This document shows positions 40,791 to 45,476 of a stretch of DNA of 64,000 bases, piece after piece. Below the pieces are notes generated by a model, which had not been told where the DNA came from, did not search any database, and saw nothing but the letters and a program-made list of their open reading frames with translations. The stretch spans positions 764 through 64,763 of the forward strand of contig CAYPMM010000001.1 in the NCBI GenBank assembly GCA_964412115.1. The letters run 5' to 3'. Position numbers and translations under genes: made by a program. The stretch is from an uncultured Candidatus Saccharibacteria bacterium. Lineage in GTDB: Bacteria > Patescibacteriota > Minisyncoccia > HO2-45-28. Position 1 is the stretch's first letter, and every line of letters starts with the position of its first letter.

Positions 40791-42803
40791 CTAGAATTTT
40801 AAGCTCTCGCCCGGTTTTAAAATCTTGCCCTTGCCCGCCTCAATGCTTTTGCTTTGGGCGGGTTTTTTTTCTTCATCTTTTGCCGGTAATTTTTCGTCCG
40901 TTTTCATTGTTTCTTTAAGAGCTTCGCGAAGCTCGTCTAACTGCGATTTTTTATCTTTTTTCATTTCCTGCCACGCCTTGGCTTTTAACTCGTCAAGCGA
41001 CAAGGTTTTTTCGGGCGCCTGCCTTCTCACTACCGGCTCACCTCCTTGCAGAGGAGCCGGACGCGGAACAAATTGCCGCGCTGGCGCCTGACGCGTAGGA
41101 CGTTCGGCGCGCTCAGGCGGACGGGCTGGAAATTCGGAACGAGGCCTGTTTGCGGCGGCAACATTTGTGCTTGCGGGTCTATCTGCGTTTGCGGGTCTGC
41201 CTGCGCCTGAAGGCGCGCTTGGGCGAGGGGTTCTGGAAGTGTTTGAAGAAAACTCAATACCCAAAAGTTCAAGGCCTCCGCCAAACTCTTCCCTATGGCC
41301 TTCGGTTGAGGGAAGCGGTCTCAACGGACGCAGTTCACCGGCCTCAATTTTTTTCAAACAATCAGAGCAGTAAACCGGCCTTCGGCCGTCCGGCTTGAAC
41401 GGCAGAGAGGCCGTTTTCTGGCAAATCCAGCAGGGTGTTTCAAATTTTTCTCCTTTTGAAAATGCCGTAGCCGAACCTACCGCTACTTCTATTTCCGACT
41501 CTTGGGCCCCAGGCAAAGAACTGGCCCATTTTTTAATGTCGGCCTCGACATCCAGCGCGGGCCTGGCATATTGTTTACGCGAAACCTCGATTATTTCTTC
41601 CGGCGGCGCCATTTCGGCGGTAATCGCGAGCGGAGGCAGGGTTGCCGCCGAAAAAGGCCGGCTGGCCACGCCATTTACCATCAGCTTCAGATAAATCGCG
41701 TAATTAGGAAGATCCACCAAATCCTGGATTTCAAATTCGGGCGTTACCTCTTTTTCCAAAAACTCGGCATCAGTTGCCCCCACCCGAAAAAAAATCATGG
41801 TACCCACGTTTCCAAAAACCGCATCGCGAACCCTGGTGGAAGTTTCGGTCACAAGCTGTCCCACATACTGGTGGGCAAGAACCAAATTAAGGCGGTATTT
41901 TCTGGCTTCGGAAAGAATGGAAGCAAAAGCTTCGGTGGTAAAATTCTGAAACTCGTCAACATAAAGATAAAAATCCTTGCGCTCCTCCTCCGGAATCCTT
42001 ACCCGCTCCATGGCCGCCAGCTGAACTTTGGTAATGAGCATCGCGCCCAAAAGCGCGGAATTATCTTCGCCTATTCTTCCTTTAGAAATGTTAGCCAGAA
42101 GTATTTTTCCCTGATTCATCAACTCAAAAACTTCAAAGCTTGATTTCGGCTGTCCGACAATGTTGCGGATGAGCGAGGTGGAAAGAAACTGCCCGACTTT
42201 GTTTTGAATCGGCACAATCGCCTCATTCCTGAATCTCGGTTCCCACACTTCGTATTCATTGAGCCAAAAAGCGCGCACAACCGGGTCGGTGACGTTGGCG
42301 ACAATTTTTTGACGATAGTCCCTGTCGGTTAAAATTCTTTGGATGCCGAGAAGCGTGGTGCCCGGAGTTTCAACCAAAGCCAAAATGCAATTTTGCAAAA
42401 TGTATTCCATTCTAGCCGACCATACATTCGCCCAGATTTTGGTGAAAATTCCAATTAAACCTTGCGCCACAAGGTGCTTGTATTTTTTGTCGGGAACTTC
42501 CAAAACATTAAAACCGAGCGGATAATCGGTATCAGCCGGATTGAAGTAGATAACATCTTTGGCCCGTTCTTTCGGAATTTTGGTCAAAAGGTCTTCAACG
42601 GTCTCGCCGTGCGGGTCAACGAAACAAAGCCCGCGCCCGGAGTTGATGTCTTGGATGGCCAAATTTTTAATAAGCACCGATTTTCCGGTGCCGGTTTTTC
42701 CGACAACATACATATGCTGGCGGCGATCGGGAACAGAGATGCCAAAAATTTTATTTTCGCCCCTGAAATTGGTCTTTGCGAAATACGCGGTATCACGAGC
42801 CAT
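40791..42803 (-). CDS. VirD4/TraG/TraD-like coupling ATPase (type IV secretion DNA-binding domain protein) with C-terminal zinc ribbon and disordered P/R/A- and K/E-rich tail
   Basis: Walker A VVGKTGTGKS, Walker B LYVDEFQ; CWICQ...CSDC ribbon; paralog at 43986-45476. Confidence 0.6.
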   Translation of the reverse strand: MARDTAYFAKTNFRGENKIFGISVPDRRQHMYVVGKTGTGKSVLIKNLAIQDINSGRGLCFVDPHGETVEDLLTKIPKERAKDVIYFNPADTDYPLGFNVLEVPDKKYKHLVAQGLIGIFTKIWANVWSARMEYILQNCILALVETPGTTLLGIQRILTDRDYRQKIVANVTDPVVRAFWLNEYEVWEPRFRNEAIVPIQNKVGQFLSTSLIRNIVGQPKSSFEVFELMNQGKILLANISKGRIGEDNSALLGAMLITKVQLAAMERVRIPEEERKDFYLYVDEFQNFTTEAFASILSEARKYRLNLVLAHQYVGQLVTETSTRVRDAVFGNVGTMIFFRVGATDAEFLEKEVTPEFEIQDLVDLPNYAIYLKLMVNGVASRPFSAATLPPLAITAEMAPPEEIIEVSRKQYARPALDVEADIKKWASSLPGAQESEIEVAVGSATAFSKGEKFETPCWICQKTASLPFKPDGRRPVYCSDCLKKIEAGELRPLRPLPSTEGHREEFGGGLELLGIEFSSNTSRTPRPSAPSGAGRPANADRPASTNVAAANRPRSEFPARPPERAERPTRQAPARQFVPRPAPLQGGEPVVRRQAPEKTLSLDELKAKAWQEMKKDKKSQLDELREALKETMKTDEKLPAKDEEKKPAQSKSIEAGKGKILKPGESLKF

Positions 42804-43050
42804 ACTTTAATTATCTCAAATTTATGTCAATTAATAAAATGTTAGACCCCCTTCCGTAGAAGGGGGTCTTGATACGTGGAGCGGCCAGCCGCCTTGGCGA
42901 AACCAACTTGGTTTTTCCCCAAGGGTTTTCGAAAATTCTCGACCGGCCGCCCCGAAACAAAAAGAACAAATGATTGCGGGGGCTATCGCTTGACCTGGCA
43001 TAGCCTCGCCCCTTTTCAATGTCGGTTACGATCCAGGTCCCGACTTATGC
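42804..43050 (-). ncRNA. candidate structured GC-rich 5' leader / cis-regulatory RNA upstream of VirD4-like gene
   Basis: ORF-free, GC-rich vs ~40% flanks; long-range helix GCGGCCGG/CUGGCCGC enclosing three hairpins; terminator-like hairpin GACCCCCUUCUACGGAAGGGGGUC + U-rich 35 nt before start codon. Confidence 0.35.
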
Positions 43051-43053
43051 TTG

Positions 43054-43081
43054 TATTGTAGCAAATACACAGGATTTGTCA
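43054..43081 (-). promoter_or_regulatory. near-consensus sigma70 promoter driving the structured leader
   Basis: minus strand TTGACA-16nt-TACAAT. Confidence 0.55.
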
Positions 43082-43202
43082 AGTCCTTGTAATGGTTCAA
43101 TAGCTTGTAACCACCCAAAAAGCCAAAAAATGGCTTAAAATAAGGAGTTTTGGGTTAATTAAAATTACTAAAATTAAAACAAAATTAAAGTTAAGACAAC
43201 AA

Positions 43203-43238
43203 GATAACAAAACATTGCGATAGCAACGTTTTGTTATC
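43203..43238. repeat. palindromic element A (GATAACAAAAC-N14-GTTTTGTTATC, core GCGATAGC); possible bidirectional terminator/operator
   Basis: 11-bp perfect inverted arms, A-tract before and T-tract after; near copy at 43869-43904. Confidence 0.5.
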
Positions 43239-43284
43239 TTTTGTGTTTTTAGCCCTGTCCACTATTTTTGGCTCTATTCACTTT

Positions 43285-43854
43285 TTAAAAAAGTTCAAAC
43301 TTCTCTTTAAGTTCGGCCTCATTGGTAATATATTTTGCCTTTATATAGCGAACGTATCTCGAAACTTCGAAAAATTCAGCCACAAAGTCAATTTCGTCTT
43401 CACATTCGTAAGGAGAAACAAAAACGCTTCTTTGAAACTCCAGCAAACCCAATTCTTTGACTTTTTTACGAAATGCCTCGCGCGCCGGTTTATTTTTTTC
43501 GGGGATATCATAAATCACAATATGCCAATCGCCTTTCCATGCTTTCGGTTTTTTAACTTTCATACTTTCAAATTCATATTGTAAAACTCTCTTTTTTCCA
43601 TCTTCTGTAAGAACAATCGTGGTCGTGTCGTCATCGTTATCCCTGAAATCCACTAACCTGTCTTCATAAAATTCGCGGATTTTGGACCAAAGATAACTTT
43701 TATTAATTTCTTTCCAGTCATGCGCACAGGCTCTTAAAATTTTAAAATATCCGTTTGGCGAAGGCGAAAAGCCGAGCATAATGCCGGTTGTCAGACGAAG
43801 CAAAATTCTTTGTTTTAAAAACGCTGTTTTGTTCATAAACCAATCATAAATCAA
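43285..43854 (-). CDS. hypothetical protein with Cas2-like (PaaX-C-like) ferredoxin-fold segment
   Basis: WHIVIYDIPEKNKPAREAFRKKVKELGLLEFQRSVFVSPYE resembles Cas2 beta1-alpha1-beta2 (YDI...K.L...G.R.Q.SVF); TTG or downstream ATG start uncertain. Confidence 0.4.
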   Translation of the reverse strand: MIYDWFMNKTAFLKQRILLRLTTGIMLGFSPSPNGYFKILRACAHDWKEINKSYLWSKIREFYEDRLVDFRDNDDDTTTIVLTEDGKKRVLQYEFESMKVKKPKAWKGDWHIVIYDIPEKNKPAREAFRKKVKELGLLEFQRSVFVSPYECEDEIDFVAEFFEVSRYVRYIKAKYITNEAELKEKFELF

Positions 43855-43868
43855 TCATGGTGTAAAAA

Positions 43869-43904
43869 GATAACAAAATCAAGCGATAGCATAATCTTGT
43901 TATC
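43869..43904. repeat. palindromic element B (GATAACAA-N20-TTGTTATC, core GCGATAGC) immediately upstream of Cas2-like gene
   Basis: same orientation and core as element A. Confidence 0.5.
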
Positions 43905-43926
43905 ATTTTTAAAATATATGTTTTAG

Positions 43927-43970
43927 GTGTGTTCTAAATGTGTTTTAAATATTTTAAGTGTGTTTTAAAA
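43927..43970. repeat. three imperfect direct repeats GTGTGTTYTAAA (iteron-like)
   Basis: copies at 43927, 43939, 43958 between element B and upstream gene stop. Confidence 0.4.
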
Positions 43971-43985
43971 CAAAATATCATGTTT

Positions 43986-45476
43986 TTACACAATAGGCTC
44001 GGGGGGCGAGTCGGAAGGCTCGGCGGCCAGCTCCTTGTTCGCGTCCTCCTCAACACTCGGTGTTGGGATCCCGGAAACACCGAGTGTTTTCCTGGGCGCA
44101 GGAGAAAGTCCCAAAAGCTCGTTTTCTACTTCGATTATTTTTTTCTTTACCTCGTCAACAGGGGCGGCAAAATTTTTACGGCTGAACTCAATTATTTCGT
44201 CCTTAAACGATGCGTGCGCCGGCGGCAGAACTTTCAAAGTTTCGGCAGAAAACGGGTCGGCGGTATCTCCGTCAATCGTCATTTTTATATAAAATTGCTG
44301 CATCCCGAGATTAACCATATCTTTAGCCTTAAACACCGGCGTCATTTCGTTTTCAAGTTTGGCGGCATCATCCCCGCCCACTCTAAATACAACAATCGTC
44401 CCGACATTTCCCAAAACCGATTCTCTGACATGGGGAATCAATTGGCCCATAAACTGGTGGGCCACGGTAAGATTGATGCCGTATTTTCGCGCCTCCGAAA
44501 AAATATTTACGAAAGTGGTCGTAACCAGATTATGAAACTCGTCGACGTAAAGATAAAAGTCCTTTCTTGACTCTTCGGGCATCGCCGCCCTGGCCATTCC
44601 GGCCTGTTTTATTTTGGTGATGAACATGGAGCCGAAAAAACTGGAGTTCTCCTCGCCCATTTTGCCCTTCGAAAGGTTTATCAAAATAATTTTTTTCTCG
44701 TTCATTATATTCTCAAGGTCAATCTTGTTTTCCTGCTGTCCAAAAATATAGCGCAAGTACGGATTGGCCAAAAATTGCCCCAATTTATTTACAAGCGGAA
44801 TTATGGCGTCGGTATCAAACTTTTCAGACCAGTCGGCAAACTCAATCGCCCAGAACCGCTTGACCATTTCGTCTTCAATATATTCAATAACTTTTTGGCG
44901 GTATTTACGGTCGGTAAGCATTGAAATCATCCCGCGCATTGTCGCCATCGGAAAATCAAGAAGGGCGAGCACGGTGAAGCGAAACACATGCTCAAGGCGA
45001 GGCGTCCAGTTCGCGCCGAATTGCTTTTCCATTACCTCAATTAACCCCTGCGCCACCTGATGTTTAAGGTCGGGATTTACGTTTTGCAGAGGATTGAAAG
45101 AAATCGGCCATTCGGTGTCCGACGGGTCAACAATTATTGTATCTTTGACGCGTTCCTCCGGGATGAAGTTCAAAACCTCTTCAATTACGTCTCCGTGCGG
45201 GTCCATCAGGCAAATCCCGTGGCCGAATTGAATGTCCTGGCGAAGCATAAGTTCCAGAAGTTTTGATTTGCCCACGCCGGATTTCCCGACGATATACATA
45301 TGCCGCCTGCGATCGCGGCGTTTTATGCCGAAAATAAATTTTTTTTCTTCAAGCCCGGCGACATAGTTAGTACGCCCGAAAAAAACGACTTCTTTCGGGT
45401 CAAATTGCTTATATATCGGGAGTTCCGGAGGAGGCGGCGCGTATTTTATTATTTGTATCTTTCCTTCTCGCGCCAT
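43986..45476 (-). CDS. VirD4/TraG/TraD-like coupling ATPase paralog (short form)
   Basis: Walker A IVGKSGVGKS, Walker B LYVDEFHN; same family pattern as 40791-42803. Confidence 0.6.
   Translation of the reverse strand: MAREGKIQIIKYAPPPPELPIYKQFDPKEVVFFGRTNYVAGLEEKKFIFGIKRRDRRRHMYIVGKSGVGKSKLLELMLRQDIQFGHGICLMDPHGDVIEEVLNFIPEERVKDTIIVDPSDTEWPISFNPLQNVNPDLKHQVAQGLIEVMEKQFGANWTPRLEHVFRFTVLALLDFPMATMRGMISMLTDRKYRQKVIEYIEDEMVKRFWAIEFADWSEKFDTDAIIPLVNKLGQFLANPYLRYIFGQQENKIDLENIMNEKKIILINLSKGKMGEENSSFFGSMFITKIKQAGMARAAMPEESRKDFYLYVDEFHNLVTTTFVNIFSEARKYGINLTVAHQFMGQLIPHVRESVLGNVGTIVVFRVGGDDAAKLENEMTPVFKAKDMVNLGMQQFYIKMTIDGDTADPFSAETLKVLPPAHASFKDEIIEFSRKNFAAPVDEVKKKIIEVENELLGLSPAPRKTLGVSGIPTPSVEEDANKELAAEPSDSPPEPIV

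Follow-up and report, generated by a model that had tools for sequence, protein, structure and literature searches.

A gene for a protein of DNA-binding type, flanked on both sides by copies of a 40-bp palindrome, in an uncultured ultra-small bacterium

In iteron plasmids the gene of a winged-helix initiator, such as RepA of pPS10, follows an inverted-repeat operator that lies over the promoter, with direct repeats near it. In REP/RAYT units and pdif modules a gene lies between matching palindromic or recombination sites, and such units are found in variable genomic contexts. One of the systems most like the one described here is PaaX of E. coli and Pseudomonas, a repressor that responds to phenylacetyl-CoA (PDB 8a39; Rv0674, 3kfw, is PaaX-like). 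The operator of E. coli PaaX is TGATTC-N27-GAATCA and the protein represses its own promoter (PMC9493321). We analysed a stretch of 64,000 nucleotides (the window) from an uncultured ultra-small bacterium, in which a gene for a protein of DNA-binding type has a copy of a 40-bp palindrome on either side.

The longest open reading frame at this locus runs from 43285 to 43854 on the minus strand and codes for 189 amino acids, starting with a TTG at 43854. The homologs are mostly 181-183 amino acids long and their alignment begins at the ATG at 43836, so the product is probably a protein of 183 amino acids (43285-43836). This mini-PaaX-like protein consists of a putative winged-helix N-terminal domain and a PaaX_M/Cas2-like C-terminal domain. 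Residues 104-179 match the Pfam family PaaX_M (PF20803) with E=4e-21 and 75 bits (cutoff 24), and the same family was matched in 121 of 121 homologs tested. The preliminary description had recognised a Cas2-like signature in the C-terminal half of the reading frame, which was borne out by Pfam, NCBIfam and structural matches. CRISPR_Cas2 (PF09827) matches the first ~40 residues of the PaaX_M domain with E=4.6e-5 and 24.0 bits, barely over the cutoff of 23.8, and was also found in 97 of the homologs; the NCBIfam model cas2 (TIGR01573) gave 5.5e-6 and 26.5 bits compared to a cutoff of 24.5. TIGR02277 reached 24 bits, its cutoff being 264. In the structural comparison with Cas2, VapD and PaaX that had been proposed at the outset, the best match of the 183-aa protein was E. 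coli PaaX, and the matches on the Cas2 side were 3exc, 8ia4, 5xvn and 2ivy. The Foldseek alignment to 8a39 spans 133-140 columns, exceeding the length of the C-terminal domain by itself. The PaaX-C domain named in the preliminary description is absent: Pfam detected no PaaX_C, the protein stops after the Cas2-like domain at residue 183 and the domain present is the PaaX middle domain.

The residues G80, W100, W104, D110, P112, R119, R123 and Q135 (183-aa numbering) are invariant, and the junction motif P-x-WDGKW is common to the mini-PaaX family and E. coli PaaX. The Asp at the Cas2-type catalytic position, in the motif FDIPE, is invariant, and the acidic and polar residues close to it hardly vary. 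This Asp is lost in E. coli PaaX, and its conservation hints at a role beyond dimerisation. In the homolog alignment neither His nor Tyr is invariant at any position, and a transposase, integrase or HUH/Tyr motif is absent.

The pattern GATAACAA-N{10,30}-TTGTTATC was found exactly twice in the 64 kb, at 43203-43238 and 43869-43904 and both times with a spacer of N20, compared to no occurrence in 100 shuffles. Both copies carry the centre GCGATAGC, equally oriented, and have an A-run ahead and a T-run behind, just as had been described. Their order has to be reversed, however: the gene lies on the minus strand and its upstream element is the one at 43869-43904, not the one at 43203-43238. The upstream element extends over 40-45 bp (43865-43909) with outer arms at 43869-43876 and 43897-43904 and its core GCGATAGC at 43883-43890. 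Its distance to the start codon, previously given as about 15 nt, holds for the TTG and becomes 33 nt for the likely ATG. The downstream twin (43198-43242, core GCGATAGC at 43217-43224) starts 43 nt past the stop codon. It is near-perfect, with 18-nt arms that are 94% complementary, whereas the upstream element on the plus strand is symmetric only in the 8-bp outer arms and the core. The gene-proximal arm of the upstream element reads TGTTATCTT on the sense strand (43875-43867) and resembles an extended -10 box. Further 5' in gene orientation there are direct repeats of ~11-12 nt, GTGTGTTYTAAA (43919-43969), for which TRF reported a period of 11 and 4.8 copies; the three copies noted before were found again at 43927, 43938 (one mismatch) and 43958. 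These repeats are short, locus-specific and present at only ~30% of the loci, and a relative with 88% identity carries only ~2 copies. We use the term iteron for them as a descriptive label only.

In order to place the two elements in a wider context we surveyed 81 homologous genes from Patescibacteria genomes. The element was found upstream of 59 and downstream of 65 genes; 69 had at least one copy and 55 had both. In control windows the rate was 1.1%. Bracketing by twin elements is a rule of the family, and hundreds of relatives are arranged in this way. Strict hairpins numbered 1.87 per kb next to the gene and 0.029 per kb in the rest of the same loci, a ~65-fold enrichment. The elements are built alike over ~40 bp, with the invariant core C[G/T]AT[C/A]G at the centre, then a spacer of poor symmetry and, outermost, arms that are symmetric. 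Following the symmetry outwards from the invariant core, we observed that it falls to 0.52-0.68 at positions 3-5 and lies at 0.71-0.89 across most of positions 6-18, a profile which suits a protein site better than a stem. The arms match within a locus with 71% identity and between loci with 36%, and in 51 of the 55 loci the within-locus identity exceeded the 99th percentile of random values. Between paralogs of one genome the arms differ, with a mean identity of 0.50. Across the family the two arms are equally conserved (0.72 vs 0.71). The divergence of the arms follows that of the N-terminal domain when the C-terminal domain is controlled for (partial r 0.127, p 0.002); in the reverse test there was no such relation (p 0.14). 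The upstream core mostly lies 25-70 nt ahead of the start codon and TANNNT boxes are most frequent at arm position +13 and slightly further out.

The family is large, with 477 clusters at 50% identity (E<=1e-30), and certain genome bins hold two or three paralogs. In about 520 kb we counted 124 gene-flanking elements and only 6 orphans, the latter adjoining unrelated genes. A wider search for the element had also been suggested. The metagenome scan with GCTATCGC-N4-TTTTGTTATC returned the orthologous locus and 27 isolated single matches on contigs without a homolog of the protein, which we take to be chance matches. We discarded a regulon or REP-like spread of the element.

Taken together we favour a mini-PaaX repressor that regulates its own gene through twin operators and is carried on an insulated, transposed cassette, and we put the probability of this reading at roughly 0.55. 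The protein would be a short PaaX-like regulator whose N-terminal domain is of winged-helix type and whose Cas2-like domain serves dimerisation; the effector-binding C-terminal domain is lacking. As a dimer it would bind both ~40-bp tripartite palindromes around its own gene, the two N-terminal domains reading the locus-specific outer arms about three helical turns apart and the conserved Cas2-like dimer sitting over the invariant core GC[G/T]AT[C/A]GC. The upstream site is predicted to overlap the promoter of the gene, and binding would then repress the gene's own transcription like PaaX at Px. The downstream site may be a second operator that pairs with the first or serves as a roadblock; its A/T-flanked dyad may also insulate the cassette from adjacent transcription. 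An autoregulator with operator sites had already been offered as one interpretation. Apart from its PaaX-C domain that interpretation is supported by the family evidence and by the known operator and autorepression of PaaX.

Several observations speak against a repressor. The N-terminal domain matches no winged-helix family of Pfam, PF07848 included, in any of the 121 members. The first AF2 model of this domain shows an H-H-H-b-b topology, but the second fuses two of the helices and the pLDDT ranges from 40 to 88. The putative recognition helix LWxKIREFYEDRLV is near-constant across proteins of 62-88% identity despite wholly different arms, and a simple co-evolution in which the helix reads the arm therefore fails as an explanation. 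No promoter upstream of the mini-PaaX-like gene passed the sigma-70 scan, and helical phasing of the spacing between the two sites, which we sought as a signature of looping, was not seen. Many loci have perfect arms of 18-21 bp, more than an operator requires. Furthermore no role past self-regulation is evident, and orphan sites are rare. The hint given by the invariant Cas2-type Asp counts on this side too.

The genomic setting bears on the cassette part of the preferred reading. Upstream of the gene there is a conserved TrwB/VirD4-like ATPase gene (43986-45476, minus strand, 496 aa) and downstream a paralogous TrwB/VirD4-like ATPase gene (40791-42803, minus strand, 670 aa). In relatives the second gene directly follows the first at a distance of 26-31 nt, with the empty site seen in L120-L123. 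Therefore the block in between (42804-43985, minus strand) is an insertion, and as the palindrome is absent from the empty sites the elements travel with the gene. The small cassette suggested earlier is supported by this, and the gene with both sites would be a self-contained cassette that was inserted in this lineage between two co-transcribed ATPase genes. The block has a GC content of 0.30-0.38 compared to 0.45-0.53 in the flanks. It also contains a near-consensus sigma-70 promoter (43055-43082, minus strand; TTGACA-16-TACAAT with TG), which faces the downstream ATPase gene and is kept in L081. A candidate structured leader or small RNA of ~220 nt follows (42830-43050, minus strand), with a terminator-like hairpin at 42869-42844 just 5' of the ATPase start; it is uncertain whether this part belongs to the cassette. 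Rfam gave nothing credible. The neighbours across 80 loci are assorted unrelated housekeeping genes, with no conserved operon partner among them.

An insertion of this kind could also be an autonomous mobile or selfish element, in which the palindromes are the functional ends and the protein nicks or cleaves the CGATCG core, or pairs the ends, and so moves itself. We consider this unlikely, though a number of findings agree with it: a single-gene unit recurs with two matching ~40-bp repeats across very different genomic contexts, a homolog with 77% identity lacks the ATPase gene that follows here, the empty sites between the same ATPase genes are free of the palindrome and the GC content of the block is below that of its flanks. 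The multiple copies in some genome bins, the invariant Asp at the Cas2 catalytic position and the perfect, fast-evolving arms that are still matched at both ends point in the same direction. The protein, however, shows no motif of a transposase or integrase and no HUH/Tyr motif, the lack of any invariant His or Tyr also eliminates a HUH or rolling-circle enzyme, and catalysis of integration by Cas2 itself is not known. We found no convincing target-site duplication. The 12-nt repeat TTAAAACAAAAT (43174-43185 and 43965-43976) is asymmetrically placed and lost in the 88% relative, and the elements are not themselves a duplicated target, given that the palindrome is missing at the empty sites. 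Near-identical copies of the cassette at different sites were not seen, and the cores of the two ends are in direct orientation in some loci and inverted in others. Among the viral contigs of IMG/VR there are no relatives and PHROG has no family for the protein, so that carriage by phages was rejected too. The more specific proposal that Patescibacteria harbour a new kind of minimal mobile or selfish element with a single gene, whose Cas2-like domain nicks, cleaves or synapses the CGATCG core ends, is in our judgement quite unlikely; if it were true, Cas2-fold proteins would have a Cas1-independent role in handling DNA ends.

It is equally improbable that the palindromes are purely bidirectional intrinsic terminators or insulators which shield the inserted gene and are not bound by the protein. 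Both are stable hairpins that follow an A-run and precede a T-run, and the terminator scan flagged the downstream element as terminator-like on the minus strand. The insertion also lies within an operon-like gene pair and a new consensus promoter follows it, which a polar cassette would lead one to expect, and at the downstream element G.T pairs on the sense strand slightly exceed A.C pairs (71 vs 44, p 0.015). Terminators do not need a loop and closing pairs that stay invariant over hundreds of divergent loci, though, and the arms of two terminators of one gene need not be identical. The weakest pairing adjoins the loop, only about two T's are conserved 3' of the dyad, and across the family the hairpins are equally stable in sense and antisense. 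The stems are AT-rich, compared to the GC-rich stem and U-tract of intrinsic terminators. The remaining hairpins of the window have the GC-rich make-up of ordinary terminators, a different and unrelated design. These, together with the strong enrichment at the mini-PaaX gene family, do not agree with the generic bidirectional terminator family that had been considered in the preliminary description.

Even less probable is a protein that binds RNA, recognising conserved hairpins with (G/U)AU(C/A) tetraloops in both UTRs of its own mRNA, controlling stability or translation and perhaps cleaving it. The Cas2/VapD fold is of the ferredoxin-like kind that binds nucleic acids, several of its members are RNases, and the PDB matches include 3exc ('RNase SSO8090'), VapD and BPSL1038. 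The two window elements also fold better on the sense strand: we computed -18.0 and -25.3 kcal/mol (z -6.9 and -8.2) compared to -11.1 and -22.8 kcal/mol for the antisense strand, and for both elements pooled over the family the sense strand has 122 G.T and 83 A.C pairs. However, the family as a whole shows no difference in folding energy between the strands (p 0.55 and 0.65), the non-Watson-Crick positions are mostly transversion-type mismatches rather than wobbles and the pairing dips directly beside the loop. A shared arm sequence would be needless if only the RNA structure mattered. With the energies symmetric and the G.T excess weak, a strand-selected RNA hairpin was rejected. An IS200/IS605 or REP-RAYT element (no HUH/Tyr motif, two undispersed palindrome copies in 64 kb) and a mini-CRISPR (no array or cas genes in the window) were dismissed likewise.

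If the repressor reading is right, the mini-PaaX family offers ready pairs of proteins and sites, in which the core is fixed and the arms have diversified; such pairs are well suited to experiments on the specificity of DNA recognition. To our knowledge recognisable regulators are very scarce in Patescibacteria, and for none of them has an operator been defined. Our literature search found no paper that combines PaaX and Cas2, and among the papers listed none connects PaaX with these phyla or refers to GCGATCGC in them. A Cas2-type domain with its Asp intact would here apparently provide both the dimerisation and the central DNA contact of a protein resembling a transcription factor, which bears on the relationship between Cas2 and PaaX. 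The empty sites indicate that insulated cassettes can enter conserved operons, a plasticity so far undescribed for these reduced genomes.

REP/RAYT units differ in having a HUH-Tyr transposase and in being dispersed in high copy, and the Xer sites of pdif modules have the reverse design, the core being conserved and the arms variable here. The likeness to RepA of pPS10 is a functional analogy only, as the mini-PaaX genes are chromosomal with many paralogs, show no sign of a replicon and encode a different fold. VapD and BPSL1038 are stand-alone Cas2-fold nucleases, and like them the protein encoded here has a Cas2 fold and stands alone outside CRISPR loci. The structural matches to them are weak, and the mini-PaaX protein has no VapX-like partner, carries a fused putative DNA-binding domain and is flanked by twin palindromes. 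With the Cas2 of CRISPR adaptation it shares the Y/F-D-I/V...Q-x-S-V-F signature and the Asp at the catalytic position, and many members are labelled 'CRISPR-associated endonuclease Cas2' in public sources. For the mini-PaaX family this name is a misannotation and many entries of that name in these phyla have no part in CRISPR. The absence of a CRISPR array and of cas1 from the window, as stated in the preliminary description, was confirmed: TRF found no array, there is no Cas1 or other Cas protein among the 56 ORFs of at least 150 aa in the window and none among the neighbours in the 80 loci. The protein also has an extra N-terminal domain, and the marginal scores of the Cas2 models extend over its first ~40 domain residues only.

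With PaaX the WDGKW junction motif is shared. The PaaX operator consists of short inverted repeats ~30 bp apart in a site of ~39-40 bp, compared to 8-N20-8 here and a total of ~40 bp across the family, a likeness of geometry only. PaaX, however, has 316 amino acids including the PaaX_C effector domain, whereas mini-PaaX has 183 and no PaaX_C, its N-terminal domain is not matched by the PaaX N-terminal model and there are no paa genes near it. Where PaaX has Ser-Glu-Gly, mini-PaaX keeps the Cas2-type Asp. The central core of its sites is invariant and the gene has such a site at either side; the family itself has expanded greatly and only within Patescibacteria, with several paralogs in some bins.

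The region 43186-43985 lies between two TrwB/VirD4-like ATPase genes on the minus strand, the upstream one at 43986-45476 (496 aa) and the downstream one at 40791-42803, and contains a single gene on the same strand. The longest ORF starts with TTG and encodes 189 aa (43285-43854, minus). Because the homologs are mostly 181-183 aa long and align from an ATG at 43836, we took the gene, referred to here as mini-PaaX, as 43285-43836 (183 aa). The preliminary description had placed a Cas2-like gene between twin palindromes, and this was borne out: GATAACAA-N20-TTGTTATC occurs at just two sites in the 64-kb window, 43203-43238 and 43869-43904, and in none of 100 shuffles. Its upstream and downstream labels have to be read on the minus strand, where the upstream palindrome is that at 43869-43904 and the downstream one that at 43203-43238. 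Both palindromes are centred on GCGATAGC in identical orientation, with an A-run on the 5' side and a T-run on the 3' side. In the downstream copy the arms are complementary to 94% over 18 nt; in the upstream copy the symmetry on the plus strand is limited to the outer 8 bp and the core. The claim that the window holds neither a CRISPR array nor cas1 also stood, as TRF found no array and there was no Cas1 or other Cas protein among the 56 ORFs. Neither tRNA genes nor Rfam matches at gathering score were found in the window.

In the window protein Pfam detected PaaX_M ('PaaX central Cas2-like domain') with E=4e-21, whereas the Cas2 match was marginal and restricted to the first ~40 residues of the domain; NCBIfam and PADLOC gave the same partial Cas2 signal. 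All 121 homologs carry PaaX_M and 97 of them Cas2, while no homolog matched the models of the N- and C-terminal PaaX domains or had a convincing hit to another family. Two AlphaFold2 models reached a mean pLDDT of 66.5 and 77.2, with the N-terminal 95 residues less certain than the rest: in one model these form a winged-helix-like helix-helix-helix-strand-strand-helix arrangement, and in the second two of the helices are fused. The Asp of the IVIFDIPEK motif is invariant across the family. Judged from these profiles, the protein is a short PaaX relative with a more Cas2-like core and without an effector domain.

At 50% identity the family comprises 477 clusters (E<=1e-30) or 2697 clusters (E<=1e-10). 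GTDB species genomes contain at least 565 family loci, and we fetched 80 loci (81 genes) for the analysis; all 80 came from Patescibacteria or unclassified bacterial bins, some of which gave two or three. The family is already in the databases, under the names Cas2, PaaX, phaN or hypothetical, and is often misnamed Cas2. NCBI/JGI tag many of the homologous proteins (P0001, P0007, P0027, P0028, P0034 and others) as 'CRISPR-associated endonuclease Cas2' despite there being no CRISPR-Cas locus, and such members would push up CRISPR counts for Patescibacteria.

Across the 80 loci we found long palindromes close upstream and close downstream of the gene, with a centre that is always C[G/T]AT[C/A]G and with locus-specific arms. 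Strict hairpins (arms of 8 or more with no more than 1 mismatch and this tetranucleotide centre) occurred at 1.87 per kb in the gene-flank zone of 200 nt upstream and 150 nt downstream, compared to 0.029 per kb in the remainder of these loci. Under a relaxed score (12 or more of 20 positions around the core symmetric) 59 of the 81 genes had an upstream element, 65 a downstream element, 55 both and 69 at least one; only 1.1% of random windows of the same loci were positive. The cores lie mostly 25-70 nt 5' of the start codon and 8-65 nt 3' of the stop codon, and they are 604-810 bp apart (median 648 bp; 666 bp in the window). Symmetry holds in 92-100% of the elements at positions 1-2, counted from the central tetranucleotide, in only 52-68% at positions 3-5 and mostly in 71-89% at positions 6-18, with a decay beyond. 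This tripartite profile indicates a unit of ~40 bp consisting of outer arm, spacer, GC[G/T]AT[C/A]GC, spacer and outer arm.

Many arms fit a loose AAAnGnTRC...GYAnCnTTT pattern. Arm identity was 71% between the upstream and downstream elements of one locus but 36% between loci, and in 51/55 loci the own-locus value exceeded the 99th percentile of random pairs; conservation favoured neither arm. The arms change fast, as seen in the closest relatives: beside the gene for the 88%-identical protein both sites retain TGCTATCGC-N4-TTTTGTTATCTT, the 77% relative has the arms AACTTATCAGATAA, and the 64% and 62% relatives have different arms again, with the TGCTATCGC core common to all four. Paralogs within one genome bin (45-74% protein identity) have only ~50% of arm positions in common. 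Orphan elements, which have this core and long symmetric arms, were rare (L043:5185-5228, L069:4809-4852, L054:4556-4599, L062:5742-5785, L018:3620-3663). They are intergenic, adjoin unrelated genes (prepilin peptidase, EF-G, PEBP, GatB), and those of L043 and L069 have partial similarity to the arms of the cassette nearby; they may serve as extra targets or be what is left of lost cassettes.

The three GTGTGTTYTAAA repeats of the preliminary description were confirmed (TRF: period 11, 4.8 copies). On average 2.3 matching 10-mer pairs precede the upstream element across the family (shuffles: 0.24). Three or more pairs were found in 17 of 58 loci, and the repeated units are particular to each locus. 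Such repeats, present in ~30% of loci and parallel to those of the window, include 11-16 nt direct repeats within 90 nt 5' of the upstream palindrome (loci L021, L049, L031, L033 and L001), for example two copies each of GTCTTTCCTCGCAT and GCCGAAAAGATAGAGT.

The 81 genes have unrelated housekeeping genes in either orientation as neighbours (RNase III, DNA polymerase III alpha, tRNA synthetases, ribosomal protein S12 and others). For the 77%, 64%, 62% and 55% homologs the downstream ATPase of the window was not found 3' of the gene, nor was one found 5' where the contig extends. The 496-aa ATPase itself is conserved, with many homologs at 70-84% identity. In Paceibacteria a conserved gene cluster (40791-45476 in the window) encodes, in this order, proteins of ~567 aa and 189 aa, a tandem pair of paralogous TrwB/VirD4-like ATPases and an LTD/PKD surface protein; the second ATPase carries a C-terminal zf_Tbcl_2 zinc finger as well as a low-complexity tail. 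Four relatives at 77-84% identity (L120-L123) have this same order, and their ATPase-ATPase gap is 26-31 nt (160 nt in L120) and free of palindromes, compared to 1182 nt in the window and its 88% relatives (L081-L088). The block 42804-43985 is therefore an insertion, in which the elements came together with the gene and not as a duplicated target. The inserted block is also AT-richer, with a GC content of 0.30-0.38 compared to 0.45-0.53 in the flanks.

Behind the cassette lies a near-consensus sigma-70 promoter, TTGACA-16-TACAAT with TG (43082-43055, minus), followed by a putative structured, GC-rich leader of ~220 nt (42830-43082 region, minus; MFE -90 kcal/mol, z -4.7). It ends in a terminator-like hairpin (42869-42844, minus) ~40 nt 5' of the start codon of the second ATPase. 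The RNA, for which Rfam gave no match, may be a small RNA or act as a leader/attenuator. Promoter and leader are conserved only in the close (88%) relatives, and this part possibly evolved to re-establish expression of the ATPase gene behind it. In the 77% relative (L087:780-830) a consensus promoter, TTGACA-17-TAAGAT, lies ~80 nt 3' of the downstream element, a parallel which suggests that an outward promoter immediately after the cassette may recur. The core together with 4 nt (GCTATCGCTTGA, reverse complement of 43879-43890) occurs a third time at 42982-42993, inside the leader; this copy lacks symmetric arms, is missing in L081 and is probably coincidental. A perfect 12-nt direct repeat, TTAAAACAAAAT at 43174-43185 and 43965-43976, brackets the cassette; its position is asymmetric to the palindromes and it is partly deleted in the 88% relative, so that it is probably due to chance and not a target-site duplication. 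We found no recombinase gene at the cassette, no convincing target duplication, no viral relatives of the protein and no dispersed element copies.

Our preferred reading, to which we give a probability of roughly 0.55, is a mini-PaaX repressor that is autoregulated, has twin operators and sits on an insulated, transposed cassette. It is hard to reconcile with three observations: the putative recognition helix hardly varies where the arms are entirely different, in many loci the arms are perfect across 18-21 bp, and the Cas2-type Asp is invariant. They keep alive a second explanation, unlikely as we consider it, in which the palindromes are element ends on which the protein acts. Weaker still is the idea that the palindromes act as terminators only. 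As RNA both window elements fold stably, with lower energies for the sense than for the antisense strand (-18.0 vs -11.1 and -25.3 vs -22.8 kcal/mol), but across the family there is no such difference between the strands (p 0.55, 0.65). Non-Watson-Crick positions are mostly transversion-type mismatches, with a modest excess of sense-strand G.T over A.C (51 vs 39 upstream, 71 vs 44 downstream), and pairing is weakest adjoining the 'loop', the wrong place for a stem under selection. Together, energies, mismatch type and loop-proximal pairing favour the predicted recognition of duplex DNA, and make a protein that binds RNA, for which the good sense-strand folding would also speak, the least probable explanation.

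For the repressor reading we compared arm divergence with protein divergence in partial Mantel tests. Arm divergence tracks N-terminal divergence with the C-terminal domain controlled (r 0.127, p 0.002), and in the reverse test no association was detected (r 0.046, p 0.14). This is suggestive of variable N-terminal domains reading the variable arms with a conserved Cas2-like dimer over the core, though shared ancestry confounds such tests. TANNNT boxes peak at position +13 in every arm and in upstream elements also at +21 and +26, beyond the proximal arm; nine upstream elements, including that of the window (TGTTATCTT at 43875-43867), have TG two bases 5' of the box. A -10 box would be expected at this place if promoter and site overlapped. 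Upstream of the window gene, no full sigma-70 match passed the promoter scan.

Our literature search found no paper linking PaaX or Cas2-like regulators to Patescibacteria or describing twin elements, and neither the architecture of twin elements nor their invariant core nor the behaviour as a cassette seems to have been described so far. The P-x-W-D-G-K-W junction is common to E. coli K-12 PaaX and the family in a profile comparison in which only 45 columns align. E. coli PaaX has LLLLSEGLDK where the family has IVIFDIPEK, and the Asp of the latter aligns with that of Cas2 SSO8090. In E. coli the PaaX operator, TGATTC-N27-GAATCA, spans 39 bp, and the protein represses Px, the promoter of its own gene, by excluding RNA polymerase (review PMC9493321); in their geometry the elements resemble this operator.
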